64,000 bases of DNA from positions 657 to 64,656 of the forward strand of contig JAVJTD010000261.1 of NCBI GenBank assembly GCA_040219065.1. Direction: 5' to 3'. Of this stretch, positions 1-64,000 are shown in pieces. The stretch's first letter is position 1, and every line of letters starts with the position of its first letter. The notes beneath the pieces were generated by a model, which had not been told where the DNA came from, did no database searches, and saw only the letters and a list, made by a program, of their open reading frames with translations. This stretch comes from Planctomycetota bacterium. GTDB taxonomy: Bacteria > Planctomycetota > OFTM77. The translations under genes were made by a program, and so were the position numbers.

Positions 1-1800
1 CCGAGCTCTTCCTTTCGTTGCAGCAAAGCCGGGATATCCGGGTCCTCCATATACCCATAGTGCGCGGTGATGCTCCAGAAGCCCTGCTCGAGCTCGCGCA
101 CGTGAAGGCGCTCACCTTCGCCGAGATGAGGGACGCTTCGGGTGACCACCGTGAGGAGCACCGAGCGGCGGTGGAGGACGCGGTTGTGTCGCAGATTGTG
201 CACGAGGGCCGGAGGAGCGATCATCGGCGAGCCGGTCATGTAGATCGCGGTGCCGTCGACGCGAGTGGGGCGAGTCCGTCGCGTGCGCTCGAGAAAGGTC
301 TGGATCGGCTCGACGCGCTCCTGAATGCGGCGCTCGAGGATCTCGCGGCCTCGCCGCCACGTCGTCATGAGGAGGAAGATGCCAGCGGCGATGGCGAGCG
401 GGAACCACCCACCGTCGAGGATCTTGATCGCGTTGGCACCGAAGAAGGCGAGGTCGATGGCCAAGAATGCGGCCGTGAGCGCGAGGGCGCTCGCCAGGCT
501 CCAACGCCAGCGCCGGCGAGCGACGACGAAGGCCAGGAAAGTCGTGGCGACCATCGTCGTCGTGACCGCCATGCCGTAGGCAGCCGCCAGGCGGCTCGAG
601 GAGCCGAAGCCGATCACGAGGCCGATGGTCGACAGCATGAGGACCCAGTTGACGAGCGGCATGTAGATCTGACCGATCTCGGTCTCCGAGGTGTGGCGGA
701 TCTCGACCCTGGGCAGGTAGCCGAGCATCGTCGCTTGCCGGGTGAGCGAGAAGGACCCGGAGATGACCGCTTGGGAGGCGATGATGGTGGCCAGCGCGGC
801 CAGGGCGACACCGGGGTAGAGAAGCCAGCCCGGCATCATTTGATAAAAGGGATTGACGGCCGCCTGCGGCTCGGAGAGGAGCAGGGCCGACTGGCCAAAG
901 TAATTGAGCAGCAGAGCGGGCATGACCAGAGCGAACCAGGTGACGCGGATCGGACGCGGAGAAGTGCCCCATGTCGGCGTAGAGCGCCTCGCCGCCGGTG
1001 ACCACCAAGAAGACGGCGCCCAGGACCAGGAAGCCCGTGCCGCCTCCCTCGAGTAGGAACGAAGCCCCATAGAAGGGATTGATGGCGTAGAGGACATCCG
1101 GCCGGCGAAGCAGGTGCACGGTCCCGAGCACGGAAAGCGTGCCGAACCAGACGAGGGTGATGGGGCCGAAGAGGGCGCCGACGCTCGCGGTGCCACGGCG
1201 CTGGAAGGCGAACAGCGCGACCAGGATCCCGATCGTGATCGGCACCACGAACGGCTCGAGCACCGGCGTCGCGATCTCGAGGCCCTCGATGGCGCTCAAC
1301 ACCGAGATGGCCGGCGTGATCATGCCGTCGCCGTAGAGGAGCGCCGCTCCGAAGAGGCCAAGGCCAAGGAGCCAGGGATGAGGCCGGCGCCCTTCACGAC
1401 CTCGCAGGCAGGCGAGGGCGGTCAGGGCCAGCACGCCTCCCTCGCCCTTGTTGTCCGCGCGCATGACGTAGAGCAGGTACTTGATCGAGATGACGAGAGT
1501 CACCGACCAGAAGATCAATGACATGACCCCGAGCACGTGCTCCCGCGTCGGCTCGACGGCATGAGGACCGTGGAAGCACTCCCGGATCGCGTACAGGGGG
1601 CTCGTGCCGATGTCGCCGTAGACGATGCCCAGGGCGGCGAGGGAGAGGGCGGCCAGACGCCGGGATTCCGCGGCGTCGCGCGGTGCCGGATGCTCAGCGG
1701 CTGAGGTCACGGCTTGGACTTCGACGGGAGCCTCGGCACGCGATTCGACGTGAGCCTCGTCGCGGGCAGCTTCGACGGAACTGTCTGGCTCGGAGGTCAC
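1..1800 (-). pseudogene. kup: KUP/HAK/KT-family K+ uptake transporter (Kup); frame broken by an apparent 1-nt frameshift near nt ~950-960; 3' end runs off the window start
   Basis: ORF 112..1989(-) contains the KUP signature GDIGTSPLYAI and later GGEALYADMGHF. Immediately after MGHF the listed frame becomes R/P/H-rich junk for ~300 aa. The adjacent frame on the same strand reads SPRPIRVTWFALVMPALLLNYFGQSALLL, the canonical Kup continuation, and stays open past nt 1, so it is not listed in the track. Probable start is GTG at 1800, overlapping (GTGA) the stop of the upstream KTN gene. Confidence 0.8.
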
Positions 1801-2264
1801 GGCCGACCTCCTTCGCTCGAGCTCGACTCGTGCTCTTGCCCCTCGGCCAGTCCGCAGGAGCCGAGGATCGCGGTGGCGGCCAACCGCGTTGGACAGATGA
1901 TCTCGACGCCCAGCTCGCCGAAGGCCTCGCCTCGCCAGGGCTCGTTCACCAAGGCGATGACCCGACGTGCCTCGAAGGCTCGCCGGCAAAGGATGGCCGT
2001 GGTGAGGTTCCGCTCGTCACTGACGCTGGCACAGACGATCACATCGGCCTCCGACGCGTTCGCCCGACAGAGAATCGAGGGCTCGAAGAGATCGCCTTCG
2101 AGGTAGATCGCAACGGCCGACTCCGGGAAGCGGGCAGAATCTGCGCTCTCGTCCGAGACGAGTGCCACGCGATGTCCCCTTTGGTGGAGCTCTGCCGCCA
2201 TGAGGGCGGCCACACCGGTCGATCCAACGATCAAGACAGGACGGGCTGTCGCCATCCGGATCAC
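1797..2264 (-). CDS. stand-alone TrkA-N/KTN (RCK N-terminal, NAD-binding) domain protein, translationally coupled upstream of kup
   Basis: 155-aa ORF with Rossmann-like LIVGSTGVAALMAAELHQRGHRVALV and a typical KTN fold sequence; its stop overlaps the kup GTG start. Confidence 0.75.
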   Translation of the reverse strand: MIRMATARPVLIVGSTGVAALMAAELHQRGHRVALVSDESADSARFPESAVAIYLEGDLFEPSILCRANASEADVIVCASVSDERNLTTAILCRRAFEARRVIALVNEPWRGEAFGELGVEIICPTRLAATAILGSCGLAEGQEHESSSSEGGRP

Positions 2265-2569: not shown

Positions 2570-2971
2570 GTGAGCTCGATGAACGCCCGTGAGGAGCTGT
2601 GTATCGTCGTCGGCGATTGCCAACTGGCTGCCGCCCTGGAGGCGGAGCTCGCGAGCTCCGGTCGCCGAGTCACGACGACCGGGGTCGAATCGTTCTGTGG
2701 CATCGGCCGGAGAGTCGAGGACGACTCCGAATTGGAACAGTCTTGGATGGGAGAGGCGCGCGCCGTGGTGATTGCCGTGATCGGAGATCTCGAAGGCGCT
2801 CAGACCTGCATACTCTCTGCGCGAGCTGCCGCAGCCCGGCGGGTCATCGCCTTCTCGTGGACGGCCCCCCATGAAGAGCTCCTCCGCCGGGTGGGCGCAG
2901 GGGTGGTCATTCGCCTGGATCGACTGGCCGCCGAGGCAGTGCTTCGAGAAGTCGGGAAGCGATCGGAATGA
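2570..2971 (+). CDS. small KTN/TrkA-N-like domain protein (degenerate dinucleotide-binding motif)
   Basis: 133 aa; LCIVVGDCQLAAALEAELASSGRRV resembles a KTN N-terminus with GxGxxG replaced by VGDCQLA; ATGA overlap with the next gene; good GC3 codon bias. Confidence 0.55.
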   Translation: MSSMNAREELCIVVGDCQLAAALEAELASSGRRVTTTGVESFCGIGRRVEDDSELEQSWMGEARAVVIAVIGDLEGAQTCILSARAAAARRVIAFSWTAPHEELLRRVGAGVVIRLDRLAAEAVLREVGKRSE

Positions 2972-4072: not shown

Positions 4073-5581
4073 GTGCGAGAGGCCTCCTACCTTCTGCAGC
4101 GGTATCGGGCCATGGGCTCCTACCTTGGCCTCGTCGTCGCCCTGGTGGGGACGCTGATGCTGTGTCCTCTCCTGACGCTGCTCGCGTGGCCGGCTGAATC
4201 GGAGGTCGTTTGGCCGTTCCTCGGGACGGGCCTGATAGCGGTGGTTATCGGGCTCGCGAGCTGGAAGCTGCTGCGAGCGAAGAACGACGTCGTCGTCCTG
4301 ACGATCCAGGAGGGCGGCGTCATCGTCCTCCTGAGCTGGTTGACCGCGTTCGGCTTGGCGGCGATCCCGCTGGCGATCTTGGAGGATCTGAGCTCGACGC
4401 AGGCCCTCTTCGAGTCGGTCAGCGGCTGGACGACGACGGGCTTGTCAGTGGTCGACGTCACTCGAGCTCATCCCGCGACGCTGCTCTGGCGAAGCGTGAT
4501 GCAGCTCGCCGGCGGTGCCGGCTTCGCGATTCTGATGCTCGCGGCCCTGACGGGGCAGACAGGACCGTCTCTCTCCGCCGCGGAAGGTCGATCGGATCAG
4601 CTCGTCCCGAACGTTCGCGCCTCCGCGCGCCTCGTGCTCCGGATCTATACGGGATTCGTCGCCTTCGGTGTCCTCGCGCTACGAGCCGCGGGGATGGGCT
4701 GGTTCGACGCCATCAACCATGCCTTCTGCGCCTTGTCGACGGGCGGCTTCTCGACCAGGGTCACGAGCATCGGGTACTTCGACTCAGCGGCGATCGAAGC
4801 GGTGACGATCGTGCTCATGCTCCTCGGCAACCTGAACTTCATCACCGCCTGGTGCTTGCTCCGGGGGAGCTTTCGAGCCGTGACTCGGAATGGCGAGATT
4901 CGCCTGGTCGCCGTCCTCGTGCCCATCTGTGGCGGACTCCTACTCTGGCTCACCTGCGCACCGCTCTATTCGTCACTATCTCGAGCGAGTCGAGTCGCGA
5001 TCTTCGAGACCGTTACCGCGCTCACGACCACCGGCTATTCGACGGTCGGGTACGGCGACTGGAATTCCTTCGGAGTCCTGATCCTATTGCTTCTCGTGTT
5101 GATCGGGGGAGCGACTTGCGGGACCGCCGGTGGGATCAAGCAATTCCGGATCTACCTCCTCTTCCGGGGACTGGTCCGAGAGCTCCGCCGCCCTTTTCTT
5201 CCGCGAACTTCGGTCGTCGACGACTCGACTTACGAGGGCGAGGAGCGAGTGCCCTTGACCGACGCGCGCCTGCGGACGATTGGGGTCTTCGTATTCCTCT
5301 ACCTCGGCGTCTGGCTCTGCGGGGCGGCGGTGCTGGCGGCGTGGGGCTTCACGCTCCGCGACTCCCTCTTCGAGCTCGCCTCGGCACTCGGCACGGTCGG
5401 CCTGTCCGTAGGGGTCACTGCTCCGGATGCCCCCTGGCCGGTACTTTGGACGGAGATGGTCGCGATGTTCCTGGGACGGCTCGAATTCTTCGTGATCATT
5501 GCAAGTGCCGCCAAGCTCGTCCGGGACGGCGTCGTCCTCGGGAGGAGCTCGAGGAGAGCTCAGCGGCCGGGCAATTCTTGA
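4073..5581 (+). CDS. trkH: TrkH/KtrB-family K+ transporter membrane subunit
   Basis: 502 aa polytopic membrane protein with repeated pore-loop motifs (SGWTTTGLSVVD, ALSTGGFSTR, ETVTALTTTGYSTVGYGDW, GGATCGTAGGIKQFRI) characteristic of the Trk/Ktr/HKT superfamily. Confidence 0.85.
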   Translation: MREASYLLQRYRAMGSYLGLVVALVGTLMLCPLLTLLAWPAESEVVWPFLGTGLIAVVIGLASWKLLRAKNDVVVLTIQEGGVIVLLSWLTAFGLAAIPLAILEDLSSTQALFESVSGWTTTGLSVVDVTRAHPATLLWRSVMQLAGGAGFAILMLAALTGQTGPSLSAAEGRSDQLVPNVRASARLVLRIYTGFVAFGVLALRAAGMGWFDAINHAFCALSTGGFSTRVTSIGYFDSAAIEAVTIVLMLLGNLNFITAWCLLRGSFRAVTRNGEIRLVAVLVPICGGLLLWLTCAPLYSSLSRASRVAIFETVTALTTTGYSTVGYGDWNSFGVLILLLLVLIGGATCGTAGGIKQFRIYLLFRGLVRELRRPFLPRTSVVDDSTYEGEERVPLTDARLRTIGVFVFLYLGVWLCGAAVLAAWGFTLRDSLFELASALGTVGLSVGVTAPDAPWPVLWTEMVAMFLGRLEFFVIIASAAKLVRDGVVLGRSSRRAQRPGNS

Positions 5582-9711: not shown

Positions 9712-11091
9712 ATGAGCGAAGAGTCTCTGGATCCGCGGGAAGCCGAAGTCACGGCCACGACGGACGTGTCGACCGAGACGACGGACGAGCCGACGTTCAA
9801 CGCGGTGGCGTTCTTCGAACAGGTCCCCCTCGAGTTCGAGTCGATCGAGCAGATCGAAGAGGCGAAGAGGAACCTCTTCGCCTGGCCCAGGTCCTTCGAG
9901 ACCTTGCGCACGCACGTCCTCGGCCTCGCCGAGTCCGGGCAGCCGAGCACTCGTCTGGGTCTCGGGTTCTGGCTGCTCGGTTACTCCTCGAAGGCCGCCG
10001 AGACGTTGTCTCAGGCCGGCGAGGACCTCATCGCCTACTACTTGTGGGCCCACGCGCTGCTCGAGTCGGGGCGTTATCAAGAGGCGGCCGATCAGTTCTC
10101 CGAGCTGGCGCGCACCAAGCTCAAGGAGCGTCGCTTCTTGTTCGGCCTGGCCGAGTCGTATCGCCGTCTCGACGACCTCGACAACCTCGAGAAGACCATC
10201 GGTCGCCTCGAGAAGCTCGACGATGTCGAAGCGGACCTCGCCTACTTCCGGGGCGCTCACGCCGAGCGGCAGGGCGAGTACCGGGAGGCGATCGAGCACT
10301 ATCGCAAGTCGATCCACTTCGAGTCGGAGCACAGTCACGCGCTCTTCCGACTCGCCTATCGTCTCGACCTCGAAGGCGAGGACGAAGAGGCGATGGACAT
10401 CTACGAGCAGTGCCTCGAATGCGGCGTGACGTACGTCAACGCCGCCATCAACCTGGGGGTGCTGCTCGAGGACGCCGGCCGCTTCCGCGATGCGATGCGC
10501 GCCTACCAGCGCGTCTTACATCACCACCCGAATCACCCGCGGGCGAAGCTGTTCTTCAAGGACGCCGAGTCGTCGCTCACGATGTTCTACGACGAGGATC
10601 AGGAGCGCAAGGAGGACAAGCGCAACCAGATCCTGCGCATCCCCGTCACCGACTTCGAATTGTCGGTCCGCTCCAGGAACTGCCTCGCCAAGATGAACAT
10701 CGTCACTCTCGGCGACCTCATCAAGAAGACCGAGGCCGAGCTGCTCTCCTACAAGAACTTCGGTGAGACCTCCCTGGCCGAGATCAAGGACATCCTCGGG
10801 CAGAAGGGCCTGCGCTTGGGCATGGCCAAGGACGAGGACCCTGCGCCGCCGGGAACCGTCGGACCGGTTTCCACCGGCGGCGGTGACGAGACCGTGCTCG
10901 GCAAGCCGATCTCCGAGCTCGAGCTCTCCATCCGCTCGCGCAAGGCGATGGATCGCCTCAACCTCAAGACGATCCACGACCTCACGCTGATCGGCGAGAA
11001 CGAGCTGATGTCGTGCCCGAACTTCGGGCAGACCTCCCTCAACGAGATCAAGCAGAAGCTCGCCGCCTTCAACCTCCGCCTCAAGGGCTGA
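9712..11091 (+). CDS. TPR-repeat protein with two C-terminal RNA polymerase alpha-subunit CTD-like (alpha-CTD, HhH) modules
   Basis: 459 aa; central TPR-like helices; two copies of the RpoA alpha-CTD signature ([55 protein letters not shown] and [54 protein letters not shown]). Confidence 0.7.
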
Positions 11092-11776: not shown

Positions 11777-11914
11777 GCCTGGCCCGGCACCCAGGGAGGA
11801 GGTCGCCAAACCTCCAGCCGCCATCTTCGGCCGAGCGTGAAGGAGCCGAGCAAGAGTACCTTCGGACCGCAGGGTCTCAGCCGGACTCGGTGCCCCACGC
11901 CCCATGCTCTCCCA

Positions 11915-16658: not shown

Positions 16659-17727
16659 CATGAATCTGGCAGCAAGAGCTCTGGGACTGGTCCTCGTCCT
16701 CGGGGGCGCCGCTTATCTGATCTTCGGCGGAGAAGATCCGAGCGGCAGCTCCGAGCCGAAGGCCACGGACGCGAGCGGCAAGCCGCTTCGCACATGGAGA
16801 TCCTCGGAGGAGTGTGCCGAGTGCCATCCTGAGCTCCATGAGGAATGGCAGGGATCCTGGCACGCCCGGGCCTACACGGATCCGGCTTTCGTCAAGCAAT
16901 CGAACAATCACGCCTTGCGCGACTGCGTCGCGTGTCACGCGCCGCGCCCCGTCTTCGAGACCGGCGCCGGGCTCTATGAGCGCGTGCTCGCCCGAGCGGA
17001 CCGGCTCCACGAAGGCGTCGATTGCTTGAGCTGCCACTTCCTCCCCGACGAACACCTCGCCTCGACGCGTGAGGACGTCGATACCAATGCGCCTTGTGCT
17101 CCGGTCTACGTCGAGGAGATGGGTACGGTCGAGGTTTGCGCGCCGTGTCACAACCAGCACGACACCGTCGATGAGTGGCGCCGCTCCCCGAAGGGGCAAG
17201 AAGGTGTCGGCTGCCGCGATTGTCACATGCCCACCGAGGAGCGTGCTCCGGCGACTGGAGTCGCGGCGAGGCTGGTGCGGACCCACGTGATGCCGGGCGG
17301 GCACTACCCCGAGCTCGTGAAAACTGCCTTCGAAGTGAATCACACGATCGAGGAAGGGAAGATCCAGGTCGGCGTGAAGAACACGCACCTGGGTCACAAC
17401 CTGCCGACCGACGATCGCGGGCGAGCGCTCGATCTGGTCGTTTCGGTATTCGACCGAGCGGGCAATCCGGTGCCGCAGCCCGAGGCCTTGATCAAGCCCG
17501 GGCAGACAGAGGGCACGTTTCGCGCCCGCTTCCGGCTGCCGTACCGTGAGGAGCTGATCAACGAGCCGATCACTCAGATCCCTCCGGGTGAGACTTCCGC
17601 CTTCGACTGGAGCCTCCCGGTCTCGACCGGCAAGGCGATCGTCGAGCTCTACTTCAAGCTGCAGCCCTACATCCCCGATGGTCACGAGGACTCGACCTTG
17701 GTCTACAGGCAGGAGTTGACGTTCTGA
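16659..17727 (+). CDS. membrane-anchored pentahaem c-type cytochrome
   Basis: Five CxxCH motifs (CAECH, CVACH, CLSCH, CAPCH, CRDCH) after an N-terminal signal/anchor LAARALGLVLVLGGAAYLIF; AGGAGA RBS before the internal ATG of ORF 16453..17727. Confidence 0.8.
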
Positions 17728-19301
17728 TGCGCTGGGCAGGCTGCTTCTTCGCGGTATTGTCGATGCTCTCGATCGTGGGCTGCTCCGAAGATGGTGAGGC
17801 TCCGACCAAGGAAGACTCCGCGCCCAAGAGTGGCACGCAATCGATGTCCGAGCGGGCGATGGAAGAGGGCACGTATCGCGAGGAGTGGTTCTGGCACGAC
17901 CGGCTTCTCGAGCCGCCGCCCTCGGCAGCCCGGCCGGGGTCGACCCCGGATCCTGCGAACTGGGCGCCGCGCCTGAAGCGATTGACGACGGCGCCACTGA
18001 CCGAGCTCGAGCCGGCTCTCGAAGAGATGGCTGCGGACGGCGCCGCTGCGCGCAACGCGCTCTGCCGGGAGATCGACACGACGCTCGACGCGAGTGAGGA
18101 CGATCCGCACCGGCGCTACCGGATGCTGATGGCCCTCGCCCGAGTCAACGGTCCCGAGGCCGCACCGACATTGGTTCGATTGCTGCGCGATCCGTTGCAG
18201 GAAACTTCGACGCTGGCCGCCGAGCTGCTCGGTGAGTGCGATGCGCCGTGGGTGACACCGAGGCTGCTCAAGAGCTTCGGCAAGTGGGAGAACAACCGGG
18301 ACATCCTGACGCGCGTGATGGCCATCGAGGCCCTCACGAAATACCGAATCTACTCGGGCTTGCCACAGCTCGTCGCCCTGCTCGCGGAGAACACAGCGCA
18401 AGAGGTGCCCGACACCGAGCGCAACTGGAAGCGCACCACGCGCATGGCGTTCATCAAAGACGAGGTCCGTCGCATCCTGCGCGAGATCAGCGGAGAGAGC
18501 TACGGCTTCGATTCGGGTCAAGGCGAAGCGGTGATGCGCGAAGCCGTCGGGAAGTGGCAGGACTGGTGGCGAGCGCACGAGCACGAGTACCTGCTCGGTG
18601 AAAGGACGCCGCACGATGCGGAGGACGCGGGCCTGCGTGAGCAGATCCAAAAGCTGATCGACATCGGGTTCCCCGCCTTCCAGCTCCGCAACGTCGACAA
18701 CGCGCGCTGGCTGCTCGAGCATCTCGGTCCCATCGCCGTGCCGCAGCTCATGGCCGCGCTCGATCGTCCCGAGCTGAGAGTGCGCGTGCATGCCGCCGAG
18801 GTGCTCGGCCGCATCGGAGACGAGCGCGCCCGAGCTGCTTTCGCTGCCAGGATTCCAAGGGAGCCCGAAGCGTCCGCGCGCGCCCAGATGATCGAGGCCC
18901 TCGGAGACATTGGCAATGAGGAGGATGCTCCGACACTGACGAAGATCCTCGAGAGCGAAAGCGAGGATACGAGCGTGCGCGTCGCCGCCGCACTGGCCCT
19001 GGGCAACATTGGCGGAGACGCCGCGATGACGGCGCTCGACCTAGCCGCAGGGAGCAGCAGTGACGACACCTCGAAAGAGATCGCCGTCGCGGTGTGGTCC
19101 GCCAAGGCCCTTCACGGCGACGATGCCTCCTTCGAATCGCTGCTCTCACTGCTGGCCTCGAAGTCCCTCGCCGAGCGCGCCCAAGGAAGCACCGCGCTCC
19201 TCGAGACCTTCCACGCCAGCATCGAGTACGATCCCTATTCCGACGAAGAGAAGCGCACCCAAGGCATCGAAGCCTGGCGCGAATGGTGGGCGAATCGGTA
19301 G
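17727..19301 (+). CDS. HEAT-repeat lipoprotein
   Basis: 524 aa, lipobox LSIVGC, multiple PBS-lyase-type HEAT repeats (VRVHAAEVLGRIGDERA, VRVAAALALGNIGGDAA); TGATG overlap with the cytochrome gene. Confidence 0.65.
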   Translation: MRWAGCFFAVLSMLSIVGCSEDGEAPTKEDSAPKSGTQSMSERAMEEGTYREEWFWHDRLLEPPPSAARPGSTPDPANWAPRLKRLTTAPLTELEPALEEMAADGAAARNALCREIDTTLDASEDDPHRRYRMLMALARVNGPEAAPTLVRLLRDPLQETSTLAAELLGECDAPWVTPRLLKSFGKWENNRDILTRVMAIEALTKYRIYSGLPQLVALLAENTAQEVPDTERNWKRTTRMAFIKDEVRRILREISGESYGFDSGQGEAVMREAVGKWQDWWRAHEHEYLLGERTPHDAEDAGLREQIQKLIDIGFPAFQLRNVDNARWLLEHLGPIAVPQLMAALDRPELRVRVHAAEVLGRIGDERARAAFAARIPREPEASARAQMIEALGDIGNEEDAPTLTKILESESEDTSVRVAAALALGNIGGDAAMTALDLAAGSSSDDTSKEIAVAVWSAKALHGDDASFESLLSLLASKSLAERAQGSTALLETFHASIEYDPYSDEEKRTQGIEAWREWWANR

Positions 19302-19309
19302 GAGCCCCC

Positions 19310-19890
19310 CCCCCTTCCGACCTGAAGCTCGCCGCATTCGGACCGCCGGCTTCAGCCGGTCTCGGTGTCCTCCATCCAAGCGCCTTGGAGAGGACCCAGA
19401 CCTCAGATCCGAAACTCCGTGGCACGATGCCGCCAGGTGTCGGATCGCCGGCTTCAAAGTTGAGAGTTGGAAGTCGAGCCGTTGGATGTTCGAAGAGGCC
19501 CAAGCTCGCTTGGGGAAGCCCTCACCAACAGACTCGGCCTTTGGCTCGCTCGGCTTGGGCACTCCAGTGCGCCGGGCCCAAGGAAGTCACGCCGGCACGG
19601 TGCGCCCCGGCCCAAGCTCGCTTGCGCAGAGCTCTCGCAGACAGACTCGGCCTTTGGCTCGCTCGGCTTGGGCACTCCAGTGCGCCGGGCACGTTTCACC
19701 CTTGTATGCTTAAGGCGCCGCGCCCGGGGGCGGGCTCGGAGTGCGCTGTCTCGGCGCCTCCGCGTGCCCCGGCCCAAGCTCGCTCGAGTAGAGCCCACAC
19801 AGACACACTCTGCCTTTGGCTCGCTCGGATTGGGCACTCCTTCGCCCTCGGGCCCAGTTTCACCACCTGCATGATCCGGGGGCGCTGCTG
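19310..19890. repeat. mosaic intergenic repeat locus 1 (reverse orientation relative to loci 2 and 3)
   Basis: Three reiterations of ~75-nt unit cccaagctcgcttg..agactcggcctttggctcgctcggcttgggcactcc. Additional shared modules ccgccggcttcagccggtctc, ggacccagacctcagatccgaaactccgtggc, agtttcaccacctgcatg. Whole segment is the reverse complement of segments at 45650-46090 and 56535-57260. Confidence 0.85.
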
Positions 19891-19903
19891 ATTTGCGCTT
19901 TCC

Positions 19904-21601
19904 TCAGTTCTCGAAGTAGGGCCTCTTCGAGACCAGGAACCAGGCTTCGAGGTCTTCTTGGAGGGTGGACTTGGATTGGAGGCGCGATGTCTTCGGCGTG
20001 CTTCCCGAAGCGTTGTACCCGCCTCCCGAGCCTCCCGAGTTACCGCTGCCTCCCGTGTTGTCGCCGTCGTTCTTCTCGGCGCCTTGGCCGGCGGTCGGCA
20101 CCGGCTCTTGGCCGACGACGCTCGTCTTGATGAGCCTGGGATCCTGGACACCGAAGAGGCACCAGAGGCCGAAGCGATTGTCGAGGCGATGGCGTTGGAG
20201 CTCCCAAGATGGTGCGTACATCGCCTCTGCTTCTGCAATCTCCCAATTCAAGCGCTTCACCGCGATCTGGCCCTTGGGAACGCGCTGCGCGAATCGATAG
20301 GCGCGCGCGGCGTCTTTCAGGTCCTCGACGCGAGGGTCGGGCATGGGAGTGGCCGGCATCTCCTCGAGCTGACGGGTCCGGGCGAGGACGGCGAGGTAGA
20401 GCCAGGCCGAGCGAATGAGGCGGGGGTTGCTGCGATCGTTGCGGACGACCGCGAGCGCGGTGTCCTTCCCCTCTGCGCTCTCGAGGCGAGCCAAGCCGAG
20501 GAGAGCGGCACTCTGCAGGTCGGGCTGCTTCGCTTGCAGGAGCCGCATCAGATAAGGAACGGCGTCCTGGCCGAGCACGCGCGCGGCGGTCGCGGCGATC
20601 TGGGGGGCTCGCTCCTCGGGCATCTTCGTGAGCTTCTCGAACCGATTGATCCAAGCCTTCGCGCCCGACTCGCCAGGCTCGAGCGTCGGCTCGATCCGCT
20701 CGAGGACCGGGAGGACGGTCAACAGGACTTCGGACTTGGCGTCGGCATAGAGGCTCTCGAGGTATTTGAGCGATTTGTCCTTGGGCTGATGAGCGCCGAG
20801 AGCCAAGGCCGCGAACATCTGCTCCTCGAGTGCCCCGCTCGAGCGGGCGACGTCCAAGAAGGAGTGATCGAGGCCCGAAGGCATCTGCCGGCCTTCGCCG
20901 AGATGGGCCAGGGTCAGCCAAGCGCCGAGACGGAGGATGCGCTCGCTGGTCTGATCCCCGTGCTTTCCCGAGAGGATCGCGATGGCGGTGACACCTGCGG
21001 ACTGATCGCCGATCAGTGCCCGGCTGAACAAGGCGGCCGCTTGCCGCCTCATCTCCCAGGCGTCCGGTCTCGCCAGACGCTCGATCTTCCTCAGGACCTC
21101 CACACTTTCGGCAGACCGCGCTCGCCCCAATGCCAACACGGCGGCCACCGCAGCCTGGGACCGGGGCCGATTCTCGCTGAGCGCGAGGGCCTCGAGCGTC
21201 TTTCGGGCTTCGGGGGTCAAGGTCGACCCCAGCCCGAGACCGAGAGCGACGACGACCTCTTCCTCGTCACTCCATTTCCCCAGGTTCCGGTTGAGGAGCT
21301 CGAGGGATTCGGGGTCGCGGAGTCCGGCGAGCATGAAGAGCAGGCTTCGGCGCACCTGGGCGGCGCCTTTTTCATCGAGCTTCCTGACGAGGCTCCGGCG
21401 CAGCTCGTCGAAGGTGCCCCAGTCGATGACGGCGTCGACGGCGGCTCGGCGCCGTTGGGCATTGCCGTCATTGAGCGCGCGCACGTGAGGTTCCAGCCGC
21501 GCCTCGAGGGCGGATCGGCCGGGCTCGAAGACGTCGAGAAACCCCTCTTCATCGCCGATCCCGCTCAGCGCCGCCAGTCCGAGTGCGATCCAAAGCATCA
21601 T
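19904..21601 (-). CDS. secreted HEAT-repeat protein with Gly/Ser-rich C-terminal tail
   Basis: 565 aa, signal peptide MMLWIALGLAALSG, many HEAT/ARM-like helical repeats. Confidence 0.6.
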   Translation of the reverse strand: MMLWIALGLAALSGIGDEEGFLDVFEPGRSALEARLEPHVRALNDGNAQRRRAAVDAVIDWGTFDELRRSLVRKLDEKGAAQVRRSLLFMLAGLRDPESLELLNRNLGKWSDEEEVVVALGLGLGSTLTPEARKTLEALALSENRPRSQAAVAAVLALGRARSAESVEVLRKIERLARPDAWEMRRQAAALFSRALIGDQSAGVTAIAILSGKHGDQTSERILRLGAWLTLAHLGEGRQMPSGLDHSFLDVARSSGALEEQMFAALALGAHQPKDKSLKYLESLYADAKSEVLLTVLPVLERIEPTLEPGESGAKAWINRFEKLTKMPEERAPQIAATAARVLGQDAVPYLMRLLQAKQPDLQSAALLGLARLESAEGKDTALAVVRNDRSNPRLIRSAWLYLAVLARTRQLEEMPATPMPDPRVEDLKDAARAYRFAQRVPKGQIAVKRLNWEIAEAEAMYAPSWELQRHRLDNRFGLWCLFGVQDPRLIKTSVVGQEPVPTAGQGAEKNDGDNTGGSGNSGGSGGGYNASGSTPKTSRLQSKSTLQEDLEAWFLVSKRPYFEN

Positions 21602-45639: not shown

Positions 45640-46096
45640 GCCGGACATCAAAGGAGTGCCCAAACCGAGCGAGCCGGTGACCGAGTCTCTTGGAGAGGGC
45701 TCTCCCGAGCGAGCTTGGGCCGGGGCGCGTCGGACGACGGCAGGTGCGGGCCACGGAGCTTCGGATCTGAGGTCTGGGCCTCTCCGAGGTGCCCGGATAG
45801 AGGACACGGAGACCGGCTGAAGCCGGCGGTCCGAATGCGGCCGGTTTCAGCTCAGGAGCCGCTCCCCGTTTCGGTCGCGCGGGCTTTGGTTTGGTTGTGC
45901 GGGCTCCGGTTTCAGTCCAGCCCCGACCCCGGCAGCGGACCGCCGGAGCAGACTGTGGTGAGACTGGCCGCTTCAGGCCACCTCCCGGCTGAAGCCGGGG
46001 AACCAACCCGACTGAAGTCGGGGGATACAGGGATTCCCGCTGAGCCGGTTTCAGCTCAGGAGCCGATTCCCGTTTCGGTCGCGCGGGCTCTGGTGA
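45640..46096. repeat. mosaic intergenic repeat locus 2
   Basis: Contains unit ggagtgcccaaaccgagcgagccggtgaccgagtctcttggagagggctctcccgagcgagcttgggccggggc plus modules ggccacggagcttcggatctgaggtctgggcc, gagaccggctgaagccggcggtccgaatgcgg and a duplicated gtttcagctcaggagccg..cccgtttcggtcgcgcgggct; fills the whole folE / ECF-sigma convergent spacer. Confidence 0.85.
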
Positions 46097-49798: not shown

Positions 49799-49936
49799 GA
49801 CTCGAGCTCCATCAGGGGAGTGACTTCAGATCGCCGATCGACCTGCTCGGGGAGTGAAACGGGAGGCGCCTCACGATCCGGCAATGGAGTCGTGAGTTTT
49901 CGTATCCCCCCACTTCAGGAGGTTGGCTCTCCGGCT

Positions 49937-50809
49937 TCAGCCGGATCGTTTCCCTTCGAAACGCGCGTTCCTCGTGGTCGCGGGCTCCACTCCGACGCTC
50001 TCGGTCTTCGCGAAGACCCGTTCCCGGTGCTGGAAGAGCCGGACGACGTTGTCGGAGAATTCGAGGCCGCGGTCGAGGGTGATGACTTGGCCGGTGATCG
50101 CGTCCATCTTGCCGCTGCAGAGGCCGACGATGGCGCTGGCGATCTCCTCGGCTTCCAGGAAGAACGCGTCGCTGTGGTACTGGCGACAGAAGGCGGCGAA
50201 GTCCTCGCCGAACGTCGCCTCGAGAGAGCGGGTCTCGCAGAACCAGGCGCGGAGGACGTTCACTCGGACGTCGTCTCCGAGAAGGTCGGCGGCGAGGTAG
50301 CGGCAGAAGGTCTCCATGACAGACTTGGAGGCGGCGACGACGTCGTAGCCTGGCAGGAAGTACTCGGGACCGGGTGACGAGAGCCCGATCGCGTAGCGTG
50401 GATAGGCACCGAAGTGCTCTTTGATCGCTTGCAGGTACGACGCGAACGGCCAGGCGCTGTACTCGAGCCCGCGGCGGAGGCCCTTGCGCGTCAGGTCGCT
50501 GGGCGTGTGACACACCGGCGCGAACGAGACGTTGCTGACGAAGACCTCGATGCGCTCGTGATAGCGTCGCACCGACTCGAAGAGCGCCCGCGTGTCCTCG
50601 TCTCGAGCGACATCGGCTTCGAGGATCGCGGGCGTTGGCGCCCCCTCCTCTTGAAAGCGCTCGGTAATCGCGTCCTCGTCGGCCGAGCCCCAGCGATGCG
50701 TCAGGATCGTGCTCGCACCGCGCCGCCCGAAGGCCAGCGCCGTCTCGAGACCGATGCCTTGCGTGCCGCCGGTGACCAGCACCGCCTTGCCCGTGAAGTC
50801 AACGCGCAT
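49937..50809 (-). CDS. enoyl-[ACP] reductase-like SDR (FabI/FabL-type Tyr-x6-Lys)
   Basis: AVLVTGGTQGIGLETA; active-site spacing Y-DVVAAS-K; paralogous to the next gene. Confidence 0.7.
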   Translation of the reverse strand: MRVDFTGKAVLVTGGTQGIGLETALAFGRRGASTILTHRWGSADEDAITERFQEEGAPTPAILEADVARDEDTRALFESVRRYHERIEVFVSNVSFAPVCHTPSDLTRKGLRRGLEYSAWPFASYLQAIKEHFGAYPRYAIGLSSPGPEYFLPGYDVVAASKSVMETFCRYLAADLLGDDVRVNVLRAWFCETRSLEATFGEDFAAFCRQYHSDAFFLEAEEIASAIVGLCSGKMDAITGQVITLDRGLEFSDNVVRLFQHRERVFAKTESVGVEPATTRNARFEGKRSG

Positions 50810-51602
50810 GGTCCACCTCCTCGAAGAGCCTCTGGCCGAGCGTCATCATGTTGTCGACGAAGCCCGAGCCGTGATCGACGGTGATCACCTGTCCGGACAA
50901 GGCGTCCCAGAGCCCGCTGCAGAGACTCGACGCGACATCGGCGACCTGCTCCGCCTCGACCGCGTACTCGGCGAAAGCCCGGGACACGGCCGCACCGTGC
51001 TCGCCGAACATCTCGCCGAAGCCGTCGGTCGTCACCTGCCGCGTCCGAATCACGTTCACGCGGCACCCGGCCTCCCTGAGATGAGTCGCCCAGTATTTCG
51101 CGAGCGTCTCGAGCACCGACTTGGCGAGCGCGACGTAGCCGTAGCCCGGGTAATGTCGATCGGCCCCGTCTGACGAGAGCGCCAGGGCATAACGCGGATA
51201 CCGGCCGAACACCGACGCGATCCCTTGCAGCGTGCCGATGAAGGGCCAAGCGCTGTAGTCGATGCTGCGCAGCAGGTCGCGGCGGCGATAGTCCATCGCG
51301 CCCTGCGAGCGCGGCACGACGCACACGTTGTGGACGAACACGTCGATCACTCCATACCGATCGCGAATGAGCTCGAGCAGCTCCCGTGTCTCGCCGTCGT
51401 CGCCGGCATCCGCCTGCACGATCATCAACATCTTTGCCCCGAGCTCTTCAAACCGTCCTCGGATCTCGTCCTCGTCGGCCGAGCTCCACCGATGCGTCAG
51501 GACCACCCGATCGCCCTCGCCCCCGAAGGCCTCGCCGATCGCCAGGCCCAGCCCTTTCGTCCCGCCGGTGACCAGCACGACGCGTCCAGGATTCTCACTC
51601 AT
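50799..51602 (-). CDS. enoyl-[ACP] reductase-like SDR (FabI/FabL-type), tandem paralogue
   Basis: VVLVTGGTKGLGLAIG; Y-GYVALA-K (Y-x6-K); colinear with the 49937..50809 protein. Confidence 0.7.
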   Translation of the reverse strand: MSENPGRVVLVTGGTKGLGLAIGEAFGGEGDRVVLTHRWSSADEDEIRGRFEELGAKMLMIVQADAGDDGETRELLELIRDRYGVIDVFVHNVCVVPRSQGAMDYRRRDLLRSIDYSAWPFIGTLQGIASVFGRYPRYALALSSDGADRHYPGYGYVALAKSVLETLAKYWATHLREAGCRVNVIRTRQVTTDGFGEMFGEHGAAVSRAFAEYAVEAEQVADVASSLCSGLWDALSGQVITVDHGSGFVDNMMTLGQRLFEEVDHAR

Positions 51603-56427: not shown

Positions 56428-56509
56428 GACGTGCTCCTTCGTGAGGCTCCGAGCGACTCGACAGTCGCTGTCGCCGAGGGAAACGAAGGAGGCATGCCGA
56501 TCCGGCAAT

Positions 56510-57335
56510 CAAGTCAGCAAGATCGTTGCGGCGAACCGGCGGAGCATACAGTGCTGAAACTGGGCCCGAGGGCAATGGAGTGCCCAAGCCGAGCGAGCCC
56601 GTGACCGAGTCTCTTGGTGAGGGCTTTCCCAAGCGAGCTTGGTCCGGGGCGGCCGTGCGACGACAGCGCACTCCGAGCGGCCCCTTGCTCCGCGCCTCCC
56701 AATTCGATCGGTGGCACCGTCGAGGAAGCAGCTCCCCGCTCAGCAGCCGCTCCCCGGTTCGGTCGCGCGGGCTCTGTTTTCGGTCGCGCGGGATCTAGTT
56801 TCAAGTCAGCAGCGCCCCCGCGGTGGACCGCCGGAGCATACAGGGGGTGAAGCTCGAGTGCGTTGGAGTGCCCAAGCCGAGCGAGCCCGTGACCGGGTCT
56901 GTCGGTGAGGGCGCTGCGCAAGCGAGCTTGGGCCTCTTCGAACGTCCAACGGCTCGACTTCCAACTCTCAACTTTGAAGCTGGCGATCCGATCGCACGCG
57001 GCGGCATCGGGCCACGGAGCTTCGGACCTGAGGTTTGGGGCTTCTTCAAGGCGCTGGGATGAGGGCACCGAGACCGGCTGAAGCCGGCGGTCCGAATGCG
57101 GCATGTTTCAAGTCAGCAGCGCCCCCAGCGCGGCGCCGGAGCATGCAGGTGGTGAAACGTGCTCGGTGCATTGGAGTGCCCAAGTCGAGCGAGCCGGGGA
57201 CCGGGTCTCTTGGTGAGGGCCTTCCCAAGCGAGCTTGGGCCGGGGCCGACCGCTGCAACCCCAAGCCTGTGAGGCTTGCCCTCGTCTGGGTCGTGCCGCT
57301 GCGCGGACCGATGCGGGCAGGATCCCGCGCTCCTC
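56510..57335. repeat. mosaic repeat locus 3: ~2.7 tandem copies of a ~300-bp unit inserted between the fabZ-like and KS genes of the biosynthetic operon
   Basis: Unit starts ccggagcat(a/g)cag..gtgaa..ggagtgcccaagccgagcgagcc..gaccg.gtct.t.ggtgagggc..cccaagcgagcttgggcc, recurring at ~56535, ~56834 and ~57141; also contains ggccacggagcttcggacctgaggtttgggg and gagaccggctgaagccggcggtccgaatgcgg, shared with loci 1 and 2. Confidence 0.85.
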
Positions 57336-57851
57336 TCAGTCGTCCAGCCAAACCACCTGACAAGCTGCGGCGGTGCAGATCTTGCCGTCGACGATTGCCT
57401 GGCCGATGCAGGTACCGATCCAGCCGTCGTCTTCGGTCATCTTCACGACCAACCGGACATCGTCGCCGGGCCGGACCTCTTCGAGGAACTGGGCGCCTTC
57501 GATCCTGGCGAGCCGAAGAGAGCGCGGTGCGTCGCCGGGCAGGAGCTCGGTCCGCTCCGCGCGGATGAAGTGAGCGAGGGCGAGTCCGGCCTGACCGATC
57601 ATCTCGAGGAGGAGCACGCCCGGGTAGACGGGATCGGACGGGAAGTGCCCGTCGAAGACCGGGTCCGCCACATCGATGTGCCGCCGTGCCTCGAGCGCCC
57701 GCTACGCGAGGTCGATCTGCGCCACGCCGTCGAGCAACAAGAAGGGCGCACGGTGCGGGAGGATCTGCTCCAGCCCCATGCGATCGATGTCGACCGCGGT
57801 GCCTCGTTCCTCCATGAGCGTGCTTCGGGTCGGCAGTCTCACGCGCTTCAT
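57336..57851 (-). pseudogene. FabZ/FabA-like hotdog dehydratase interrupted by an in-frame TAG (~codon 50)
   Basis: Listed ORF 57336..57671 begins mid-domain at (V)ADPVFDGHFPSDPVYPGVLLLE, the FabZ catalytic-His motif region. The 177 nt upstream reads in the same frame MKRVRLPTRSTLMEERGTAVDIDRMGLEQILPHRAPFLLLDGVAQIDLA-TAG-RALEARRHIDV, i.e. the FabZ N-terminus (ILPHRxPFLLxD). Its ATG overlaps (ATGA) the stop of the upstream AT gene. Confidence 0.7.
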
Positions 57852-63553: not shown

Positions 63554-63778
63554 GGTCGAAGGCGAAAACGGAAGTCGGTGCCGGATCCGGCAATGAGCCG
63601 ATCGAGTTACGAAGGACGAGATCTTGATGACGAGGCGTGGAGAGCCGGCGTCGGGTGATTGCGGGGTGAGCCGCGATTCACGAATCACGAAGATTGCCGG
63701 ATCGCGAGCTCCCTGCCGTTTCAACCTCCGACTCTTTGAGCTGTCGCTTTCCGAACCGGCCGACCGCAGGAGCCAACG

Positions 63779-64000
63779 ATGACCAGGATCGATACGACTG
63801 CGAGCCCACGGATGCTCGATGTCCCGACCCAGCTCCGCTACTCCGAGGACTACGCTCTGGAGAACAGGCGCTTGGTGCGTCTCTACGAACACGCCAAGCG
63901 CGATCAATGGAATGCGACACAGCGTCTCGACTGGTCGATCGAGGTCGATCCCGGGCGCGGCGTCTTTTCCGACGAGCTCATCGGCATCCACGGCAGCGCG
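63779..64000 (+). CDS. 5' fragment of a CDS running off the window; weak resemblance to ferritin-like di-iron oxygenases (AurF-like)
   Basis: ATG at ~63779 preceded by GGAG; reads MTRIDTTASPRMLDVPTQLRYSEDYALENRRLVRLYEHAKRDQWNATQRLDWSIEVDP..., open to the window end; high GC3. Confidence 0.35.
   Translation, partial: MTRIDTTASPRMLDVPTQLRYSEDYALENRRLVRLYEHAKRDQWNATQRLDWSIEVDPGRGVFSDELIGIHGSA

Follow-up and report, generated by a model that had tools for sequence, protein, structure and literature searches.

Most detailed descriptions of small interspersed repeats concern Proteobacteria, Firmicutes and Neisseria. Elements of the REP/RAYT type occur in tens to hundreds of genomic copies, and the cognate Y1 transposase gene is typically flanked by REPs. 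REPINs are inverted REP doublets with a short spacer, which are mobilised by RAYTs. A repetitive element in the ops-tps spacer of Myxococcus xanthus was reportedly described by Fujitani et al. in J Bacteriol in 1991; like the family reported here, it is said to be an intergenic multicopy repeat in a myxobacterium. Clusters of REPs, which are G+C-rich stem-loops, are found preferentially at convergent genes and influence the stability of mRNAs (PMC3184786). In the composite BOX elements, boxA-boxB(n)-boxC, the middle module is repeated in tandem (PMC3049150), and a minisatellite inside a MITE has a precedent (PMC4596501).

We analyzed a stretch of 64,000 nucleotides from one contig of an uncultured MAG (hereafter the window), in which an earlier note had pointed out a mosaic repeat family at three intergenic loci and had proposed a REP/BIME-type or MITE-like element family or structured small RNA genes. 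All three loci, and all modules quoted for them, were found at the stated places (Table 1). The family is repeated, non-coding and mosaic, is limited to spacers adjoining the ends of genes, and enlarges spacers that are short in relatives. Its building blocks are a 14-nt palindrome, CCGGC-TGAA-GCCGG, a ~75-nt unit (U), and a ~105-nt hairpin composed of modules B and C (B-C). These modules occur either solo (49900-49944 and 11860-11897) or strung together in one direction, with one to three H-U cycles plus L-B-C and D.

The unit U is present in seven copies in the window compared to none expected by chance. Its 5' core, GGAGTGCCCAANNCGAGCGAGCC, has seven matches, all with 0 mismatches, and none of 100 dinucleotide-preserving shuffles gave a match (0/100). 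The reiteration of one to three units per locus, as proposed before, agrees with the three, one and three copies counted in loci 1, 2 and 3, respectively. Pairwise identity among the U copies ranges from 75 to 92%, profile matches to U obtained with nhmmer had E-values of 1e-20 to 1e-37, and GGAGTGCCCAAGCCGAGCGAGCC occurs in four exact copies in the window. Module C, GAGACCGGCTGAAGCCGGCGGTCCGAATGCGG, is identical at 32/32 positions in its three copies, and the sequences flanking it are ~88% identical. Further modules are H (GTTTCAAGTCAGCAGCGCCCCC...CCGGAGCATGCAGGTGGTGAAAC), x (ACAGCGCACTCCGAGC) and D (GGTTTCAGCTCAGGAGCCGCTCCCCGTTTCGGTCGCGCGGGCTCTGG).

Table 1 Loci, modules and solo members of the repeat family, with their positions in the window
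Feature	Position	Strand	Remarks
Locus 1	19302..19903	-	Entire 602-nt spacer; flanking stop codons 19299-19301 and 19904-19906
Locus 2	45640..46096	+	Entire 457-nt spacer; folE stop codon 45637-45639, ECF sigma stop codon 46097-46099
Locus 3	56509..57335	+	827-nt array, KS promoter-like motif to stop codon of FabA-like gene (57336-57338)
U 5' core, locus 1	19543-19565, 19656-19678, 19818-19840	-	0 mismatches
U 5' core, loci 2 and 3 (starts)	45653, 56577, 56865, 57173	+	0 mismatches
U copy L1_U1	19766..19840	-	Core match, profile search
U copy L1_U2	19604..19678	-	Core match
U copy L1_U3	19491..19565	-	Core match; recombinant
U copy L2_U1	45653..45727	+	Core match, profile search; begins 13 nt past folE stop codon
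U copy L3_U1	56577..56651	+	Core match
U copy L3_U2	56865..56939	+	Core match
U copy L3_U3	57173..57247	+	Core match
Module B	19395-19424	-	0-2 mismatches
Module B	45749-45778	+	0-2 mismatches
Module B	57010-57039	+	0-2 mismatches
Module C	19332-19363	-	100% identical
Module C	45809-45840	+	100% identical
Module C	57070-57101	+	100% identical
B-C composite, locus 1	19332..19433	-	Predicted ~105-nt imperfect hairpin on sense strand
B-C composite, locus 2	45749..45840	+	Without L linker
B-C composite, locus 3	57010..57101	+	
H 3' part	57136-57158	+	
H 3' part	19857-19879	-	
E module	45984..46028	+	Hairpins CCGGC-TGAA-GCCGG and CCGAC-TGAA-GTCGG
Solo E-like module	49900..49944	-	45 nt, two hairpins; ~87% identical to 45984-46028
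Decayed solo copy, end of B and C (GGGCACCGAGtCCGGCTGAgacCctGCGGTCCGAAgg)	11860..11897	-	nhmmer E = 0.005

On the strand that is the + strand in loci 2 and 3, the modules follow each other as H, a ~15-nt leader, U, either L-B-C or x-D, and the next H, so that the recurring order in the window can be written as H-U-(L)-B-C-(D/H). Locus 1, read on the - strand, comprises H, U, x, the 3' part of H, U, U, L, B, C and a truncated start of H. Locus 2 consists of U, B, C, D, an H-like module, E with its two TGAA hairpins, and D, and locus 3 of three H-U cycles, whose U copies start 288 and 308 nt apart; the first cycle carries x-D' and the second L-B-C, and an 88-nt unique tail closes the array. Within a given locus, U, H, B, C and D all have the same orientation, and the units of locus 1 lie on the - strand vs the + strand in loci 2 and 3, confirming that locus 1 is the reverse complement of the other two; a generic repeat finder recovered the same families and the same inversion. 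The long stretches of high identity reported earlier are exemplified by a U-L-B-C stretch of 240 nt with 88.8% identity between loci 1 and 3 (19331-19566 on the - strand vs 56864-57102 on the + strand, BLAST). The arrays end differently, locus 1 with C and an H stub, locus 2 with D and locus 3 with U and the unique tail, and they look like cyclic permutations of one module order and not like bounded elements. Spacing of the U copies is irregular (113, 162, 288 and 308 nt), and TRF reported a single tandem array only (21 nt x 2). A CRISPR array was considered and dismissed, because the spacing is irregular and the sequence between the units is itself homologous among the loci.

Profile searches found two further, smaller members, raising the number of sites in the window from three to five, and homology detected within the window by BLAST and nhmmer was restricted to these five intergenic sites. 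When the three spacers were compared with the whole window by BLAST, homology was seen only at the loci themselves and at 49921-49944. The miniature hairpin that had been noticed at 49931-49944 is real and forms part of the 45-nt match to the E module of locus 2. In this solo E-like module, the TGA stop codon of the SDR gene lies in the loop of the first hairpin, and the module is located directly upstream of a promoter-like motif of the ACP gene. The other small member is the decayed copy of the end of B and C, which retains exact blocks of 10, 8 and 9 nt and lies 16 nt past the stop codon of a 73-aa ORF, between the convergent pair of this small ORF and RuvA.

The KS protein encoded beside locus 3 is 100% identical to NCBI MEQ8765390.1 ("MAG: Planctomycetota bacterium"). 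The next-best KS homologues were ≤72% identical, and all named taxa among them were Nannocystaceae or Myxococcales (Nannocystis, Enhygromyxa, Plesiocystis and Pseudenhygromyxa). Therefore, judging from these protein similarities, the host probably represents a Nannocystales-like lineage of the Myxococcota. Two short-read contigs of 2.5-3.6 kb that stem from the same organism but from another data set (Logan SRR26147846, contigs L001 and L004) reproduce gene-to-repeat junctions: one junction leads from the HEAT gene into module C and is covered to 19359, and the other connects the FabA-like gene with U and is covered from 57215. They show only strain-level mismatches to the window over 6.1 kb, and they end inside the repeats. 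As an additional observation, short-read contigs break exactly at the repeats.

At three syntenic loci of relatives (L002, L003 and L005), no family member was detected by BLAST, nhmmer or a hairpin search, and no comparable arrays were found. Exact-pattern searches with the U core, the U 3' end and C (one pattern with Ns) yielded 0 matches in GTDB representatives among the matches listed, and exact-pattern scans of JGI metagenomes and IMG/VR with the same three targets also yielded 0 matches. Plasmids and phages likewise lacked a match to locus 3 in a distant blastn search. The collections scanned do not contain the source MAG, whose nearest relatives are distant; these negative results say only that the family is lineage-restricted and are silent on the copy number in its own genome.

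Every reading frame in the repeats is broken by indels, and a six-frame translation of the repeats, submitted as one concatenated query, had no match at E ≤ 10 in a set of 5.8 billion predicted proteins, a weak negative as the query was artificial. The arrays extend through the spacers from one stop codon to the facing stop codon or to a promoter and start 0-16 nt from stop codons. The array of locus 1 begins 8 nt past one stop codon and reaches to ~3 nt from the other, and in locus 2 the final D ends 2 nt short of the stop codon of the sigma factor gene. In agreement with the earlier note, two of the three main loci, locus 1 (HEAT/HEAT) and locus 2 (folE/ECF sigma), are located between convergent genes; together with the small ORF/RuvA pair, this applies to three of the five sites. 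Locus 3 is flanked by two genes on the - strand, FabA/ApeI-like and KS, and its array is antisense to both. A rule that arrays start right after a co-oriented gene was rejected as uninformative: any array between convergent genes obeys it automatically, and the two sites that could tell give opposite answers (49900 is co-oriented, locus 3 antisense).

The proposal that the repeats fill spacers which would otherwise be short was borne out at the FabA-KS junction, which measures 19 nt in Nannocystis (orthologous) compared to 908 nt here. In L002 and L003, aurF and other genes sit at this junction. Locus 3 as a decayed aurF gene was discarded, since tblastn placed the aurF homologue at 63863-63997 and gave no match in locus 3. 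Compared with L002 and L003, the SDR-ACP spacer is extended by ~27 nt in the window, a difference attributed to the E-like insert. A Pfam scan of 37 ORFs in the window revealed no transposase, integrase or RAYT domains.

Variation among the U copies is distributed unevenly. Variable columns account for 2/23 and 1/12 positions at the two ends vs 18/32 in the middle (permutation p < 1e-4), and U thus has conserved ends and a variable middle that is predicted to form hairpins. Conserved blocks flanking variable parts measure 23 nt at the U 5' end, 15 nt at the U 3' end and 32 nt in C; they are either constrained or else were lately homogenised. The 5' halves of U cluster by locus, with 92-100% identity for the copies of locus 1 and 89-95% for those of loci 2 and 3 taken together. 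The leader and 5' part of L1_U2 contain a tract of 50 nt with 100% identity to L1_U3 and its leader (19641-19690 vs 19528-19577). In L1_U3, the 5' half is identical to that of L1_U2, whereas the 3' half is 82-84% identical to locus 3 vs 66% to its neighbours, and the L-B-C block downstream is common with locus 3. Such a pattern is the signature that local duplication or gene conversion plus exchange between loci would leave.

The window contains six CCGRC-TGAA-GYCGG hairpins compared to 0.26 expected, all of which are intergenic or overlap a stop codon, and one of them carries a compensatory (two-sided) stem change with the loop kept. Together with module sets that differ by locus, this matches the mosaic, palindrome-containing organization described previously. 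B-C is predicted to fold into a ~105-nt imperfect hairpin of -48 to -53 kcal/mol (z = -1.0, -3.0 and -3.1), with the sense fold 9-15 kcal/mol lower than the antisense fold. Because of G.U pairs, the sense strand folds better than the antisense strand: paired cells amount to 33/35 vs 25/35 for the inner hairpin of U, and to 113/120 vs 102/120 for B-C. In a two-hairpin model of U, 93.5% of the cells are paired, and two two-sided changes fall into the inner hairpin, within the variable middle. The covariation of this model did not reach significance, being equalled by 47-70 of 500 shuffles, several single-unit folds were no better than those of shuffled sequence, and minimum-free-energy folds differed among copies. 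Overall, an RNA structure of the units is plausible according to these models, which slightly favour the sense strand.

The family works like REP/BIME/BOX-type elements but lacks defining features of BIME, REPIN and MITE; compared with BOX, it has a unit reiterated one to three times (H-U) and terminal modules that differ among the loci. It is thus probably none of these. As in the REP and BIME elements of Enterobacteria and Pseudomonas, G+C-rich extragenic stem-loops are often found between convergent genes (PMC3184786), stand singly or clustered in mosaic arrays with conserved linkers (here L and x), and could by analogy affect mRNA 3' ends (PMC3184786). The 14-nt CCGGC-TGAA-GCCGG hairpin behaves like a REP core, with six copies that are solo or in arrays, and the TGAA hairpins are short G+C-rich extragenic palindromes in the sense used for REPs (~20-40 nt). 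The REP/BIME type proposed earlier is thus supported by the behaviour of the family, which resembles REP, BIME and BOX. However, BIMEs alternate two REP types in orientation, whereas the units are direct within a locus here. Moreover, the main unit (75 nt for U, ~150 nt for H-U) is far longer than a REP, no RAYT is encoded in the window, and the sequences are not similar.

BOX elements of Streptococcus are likewise modular composites in which one module is reiterated variably in tandem, with predicted RNA folding, a reiterated module that folds alone, and module sets that vary by locus or species (PMC3049150). However, BOX has fixed terminal modules with TIR-like ends and is regarded as MITE-like, whereas the loci described here end in differing modules and show no TIRs; the host is also high-GC, and sequence similarity is absent. 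The B-C composite resembles a REPIN in being one long imperfect hairpin of comparable size and shape. Unlike in a REPIN, B does not represent an inverted copy of C at the DNA level, and their pairing needs G.U pairs and bulges; module E has its two hairpins in direct and not in inverted orientation, and no RAYT is known. An interpretation of B-C as a REPIN-like inverted doublet was abandoned, as the alignment score of B with the reverse complement of C was no better than that of shuffles. ERIC elements are small interspersed repeats of the same general kind.

Taken together, we consider it somewhat better than an even call that the repeats in the window form a lineage-specific, REP/BIME/BOX-like family whose members are small, modular, non-coding and interspersed, in an uncultured MAG and known from one contig. 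Of the two other proposals made earlier, structured small RNA genes appear quite unlikely to us. They would require that U, H-U and/or B-C be structured RNA genes or cis-acting RNA, transcribed in sense as small or 3'-UTR-derived RNAs, with the invariant 23-nt and 32-nt blocks as binding sites for a protein or a target RNA. The strong block-wise conservation in copies that are otherwise 75-90% identical would fit such a role, as would the better folding of the sense strand in the U inner hairpin and B-C, the two two-sided changes that preserve the U inner hairpin, and the TGAA hairpin with a kept loop and a stem changed on both sides. However, Rfam covariance models gave 0 matches at gathering score over the window and only chance-level ones (E > 1) in loci 1 and 3, with no match even at E ≤ 10 to speak for a known RNA family. 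No sigma-70-type promoter consensus was found in the repeats, and the only terminator-like site was a weak one. The covariation did not exceed the shuffle control, the folds vary by copy, unit number and module content are free to vary among loci, the sequences are not conserved at the syntenic sites of relatives, and the orientation to neighbouring genes is not fixed. A sigma-54 -24/-12 motif in the U 5' end, inspected by eye, proved one base short in its spacing and was rejected. No tRNA or tmRNA match was obtained with Rfam or ARAGORN, and a tRNA-derived unit was rejected. A related view, that the invariant blocks (in U the 23-nt and 15-nt ends, in C all 32 nt including a C(UGAA)G hairpin) are under selection as an undescribed multi-copy structured RNA, a 3'-end processing or insulator element arrayed behind genes, or protein-binding sites, and are not selfish or neutral repeats, seems distinctly improbable to us.

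The MITE-like nature suggested before could not be upheld, and we regard a MITE or IS-derived non-autonomous transposon with TIRs, mobilised by an IS transposase and possibly with an internal minisatellite, as very improbable. The repeats are intergenic, have strong predicted secondary structure and measure 100-300 nt per cycle, and the internal minisatellite would have the precedent named above (PMC4596501). Against this, an inverted-repeat search of the loci and their flanks gave internal unit-to-unit matches only, with no TIR at locus or unit ends and no direct duplications (TSD) at the borders. The G+C content of the arrays is close to that of the genome (~66% over the window), so they are not AT-rich, they look like cyclic permutations of modules and not like bounded elements, and the window encodes no IS or transposase. 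It is also unlikely that the pattern is purely local, with one non-coding segment copied within ~46 kb by segmental duplication or ectopic recombination. Every known copy is located on one contig between 11.8 and 57.3 kb (46 kb), no copy was found in the other collections searched, and one fatty-acid/polyketide-like gene cluster is flanked by two of these sites. However, the five sites carry differing module subsets in both orientations with unrelated housekeeping genes between them, and the two additional, smaller members speak against a simple segmental duplication with three copies. Divergence among the copies amounts to 8-25%, and one of them is a decayed relic, which we take as support for the age and turnover of the family; an old family that is turning over fits these data better. 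The negative searches cannot count here, as the collections lack the rest of this genome. A weak hint comes from contig L001, which ends at 57215 in a U copy that shares no exact repeat of at least 28 nt with the other copies in the window: this is compatible with a further copy elsewhere, and low coverage explains it equally well. The probability of an assembly or binning artefact, with collapsed or chimeric repeats in a MAG, is close to negligible. The source is a MAG, and the short-read contigs of the other data set break in the repeats, but these independent contigs reproduce the junctions with strain-level mismatches only over 6.1 kb, so that the repeats cannot be put down to this assembly; the copies are, furthermore, diverged and not collapsed into identical ones.

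If the family is an interspersed repeat of the REP/BIME/BOX-like kind that we favour, its modules may have been seeded into "safe" spacers, mostly between convergent genes, by a trans-acting enzyme or by recombination. The arrays would then have been enlarged and homogenised locally by unequal crossing-over or gene conversion. Such local growth and homogenisation would explain the locus-specific signatures, the 50-nt identical tract and the recombinant U copy. Any effect on the host would, by analogy, probably be exerted as RNA hairpins at gene ends. In 3' UTRs or read-through transcripts, the hairpins could block 3' exonucleases or stall RNA polymerase, and they may thus serve as mRNA-end stabilisers or as insulators between convergent genes, as for REP/BIME. 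A role in 3' UTRs cannot apply to all sites, however, because the locus 3 array runs antisense to the genes on both of its sides. Alternatively, the repeats may simply be tolerated by the host.

The family is a new example of the small interspersed repeats that are already known from many bacteria (REP/BIME/BOX type), and the finding opens no long-standing question. A literature search on myxobacterial intergenic repeats found no such family for Nannocystales-type myxobacteria. The FabA-KS junction illustrates that a biosynthetic gene cluster can be pried open by 0.9 kb of repeats. Should the family prove to be genome-wide, it would lend itself as a marker in strain typing and in the assessment of assembly breaks in MAGs, and would also provide a handle on gene-end insulation in high-GC genomes without U-rich terminators.

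Within the window, a motif of the form TTGCCGG(A/T)(T/C)C followed, after ~17 nt, by CGT(T/G)TC precedes both the KS and the ACP gene in the fatty-acid/polyketide-like cluster. It was kept 5' of both genes in two relatives with ~70% protein identity. In sequence, the motif looks like an ECF-sigma-type promoter (−35/−10), and the cluster is adjoined in the window by genes for an ECF sigma factor (PF07638) and a Ser/Thr kinase. The non-coding repeats border on this motif at two sites, as both the locus 3 repeat array and the solo two-hairpin module at 49900 abut its upstream edge.

Coordinates of features in the window and in syntenic loci of relatives (L002, L003, and the Nannocystis locus L005).
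Feature	Coordinates	Strand	Source and remarks
Homology to the Kup potassium transporter (positions 229-453 of the K_trans profile; C-terminal domain)	ORF 3-1295	-	
Longer ORF overlapping 3-1295	112-1989	-	
73-aa ORF with one hydrophobic helix	11914-12136	-	window
FabA/ApeI-like dehydratase gene	57336-57851	-	
Promoter-like motif	49855-49886	-	window
Promoter-like motif	56481-56510	-	window
Promoter-like motif	63566-63597	-	window, one of two near 63.6 kb
Promoter-like motif	63695-63722	+	window, one of two near 63.6 kb
Promoter-like motif	~9935-9975		L002, relative
Promoter-like motif	~9940-9980		L003, relative
GGACATGTCC...GGACATGTCC motif	355-441		L005
GGACATGTCC...GGACATGTCC motif	2608-2638		L005
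GGACATGTCC...GGACATGTCC motif	4149-4179		L005

The nearest homologues of the KS protein (represented by the identical P0001, MEQ8765390.1) belong to the Nannocystaceae/Myxococcales, and synteny of the entire AT-FabA-KS-KR-HMGS-ECH-ECH-SDR-SDR-ACP cluster points to the same group. The source MAG is named “Planctomycetota bacterium” at NCBI; judging from these homologies, either this label or the binning of the contig may be wrong. The two SDR paralogues of the cluster lie side by side (49937-51602, minus strand; DNA ~72-79% identical, 796-818 nt apart), explain several of the “direct repeat” families in the window, and were kept as a pair in all relatives examined (L002, L003, and L005, each at ~14.9-16.6 kb).

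Differences from the window were seen in short-read contigs of the same organism from a separate data set (Logan SRR26147846). Codon 50 of the FabA-like gene is an in-frame TAG in the window (position 57704) and CAG (Gln) in the independent contig L001, which thus encodes an intact 171-aa FabA-like protein. Either the TAG is a genuine nonsense allele carried in the MAG population, or the consensus is wrong at this position. Compared with contig L004, the window showed four transitions (T/C, A/G, A/G, and A/G) clustered in 28 nt (17038-17065) of a cytochrome-c-like gene, and the rest of the 3.6 kb compared was identical. The Kup gene (3-1989) may carry a frameshift, or a different frame may hold its 5' part.

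The start codon of the 73-aa ORF overlaps the MnmG/GidA stop codon (ATGA), and this ORF, which is followed by the decayed C module, is probably a genuine, translationally coupled small membrane protein. A homopolymer of 10-11 C (G on the minus strand) was observed at 19306-19316, directly after the stop codon of a HEAT-repeat gene (17727-19301). This run lies where the locus 1 array ends and takes the place of the CGCCCCC that is usual in module H. The only array part that TRF called as a tandem repeat was a duplicated 21-nt unit, TTCGGTCGCGCGGGATCTAGTT, within the D' module of locus 3 (56758-56801).

A distinct small palindromic motif, GGACATGTCC...GGACATGTCC (repeat family D3; n = 4), was found in the Nannocystis locus. 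According to called-gene coordinates, the copy at 2608-2638 is within the PGI gene, and the other three fall between genes. Further members of the group may possess short repeats of their own.
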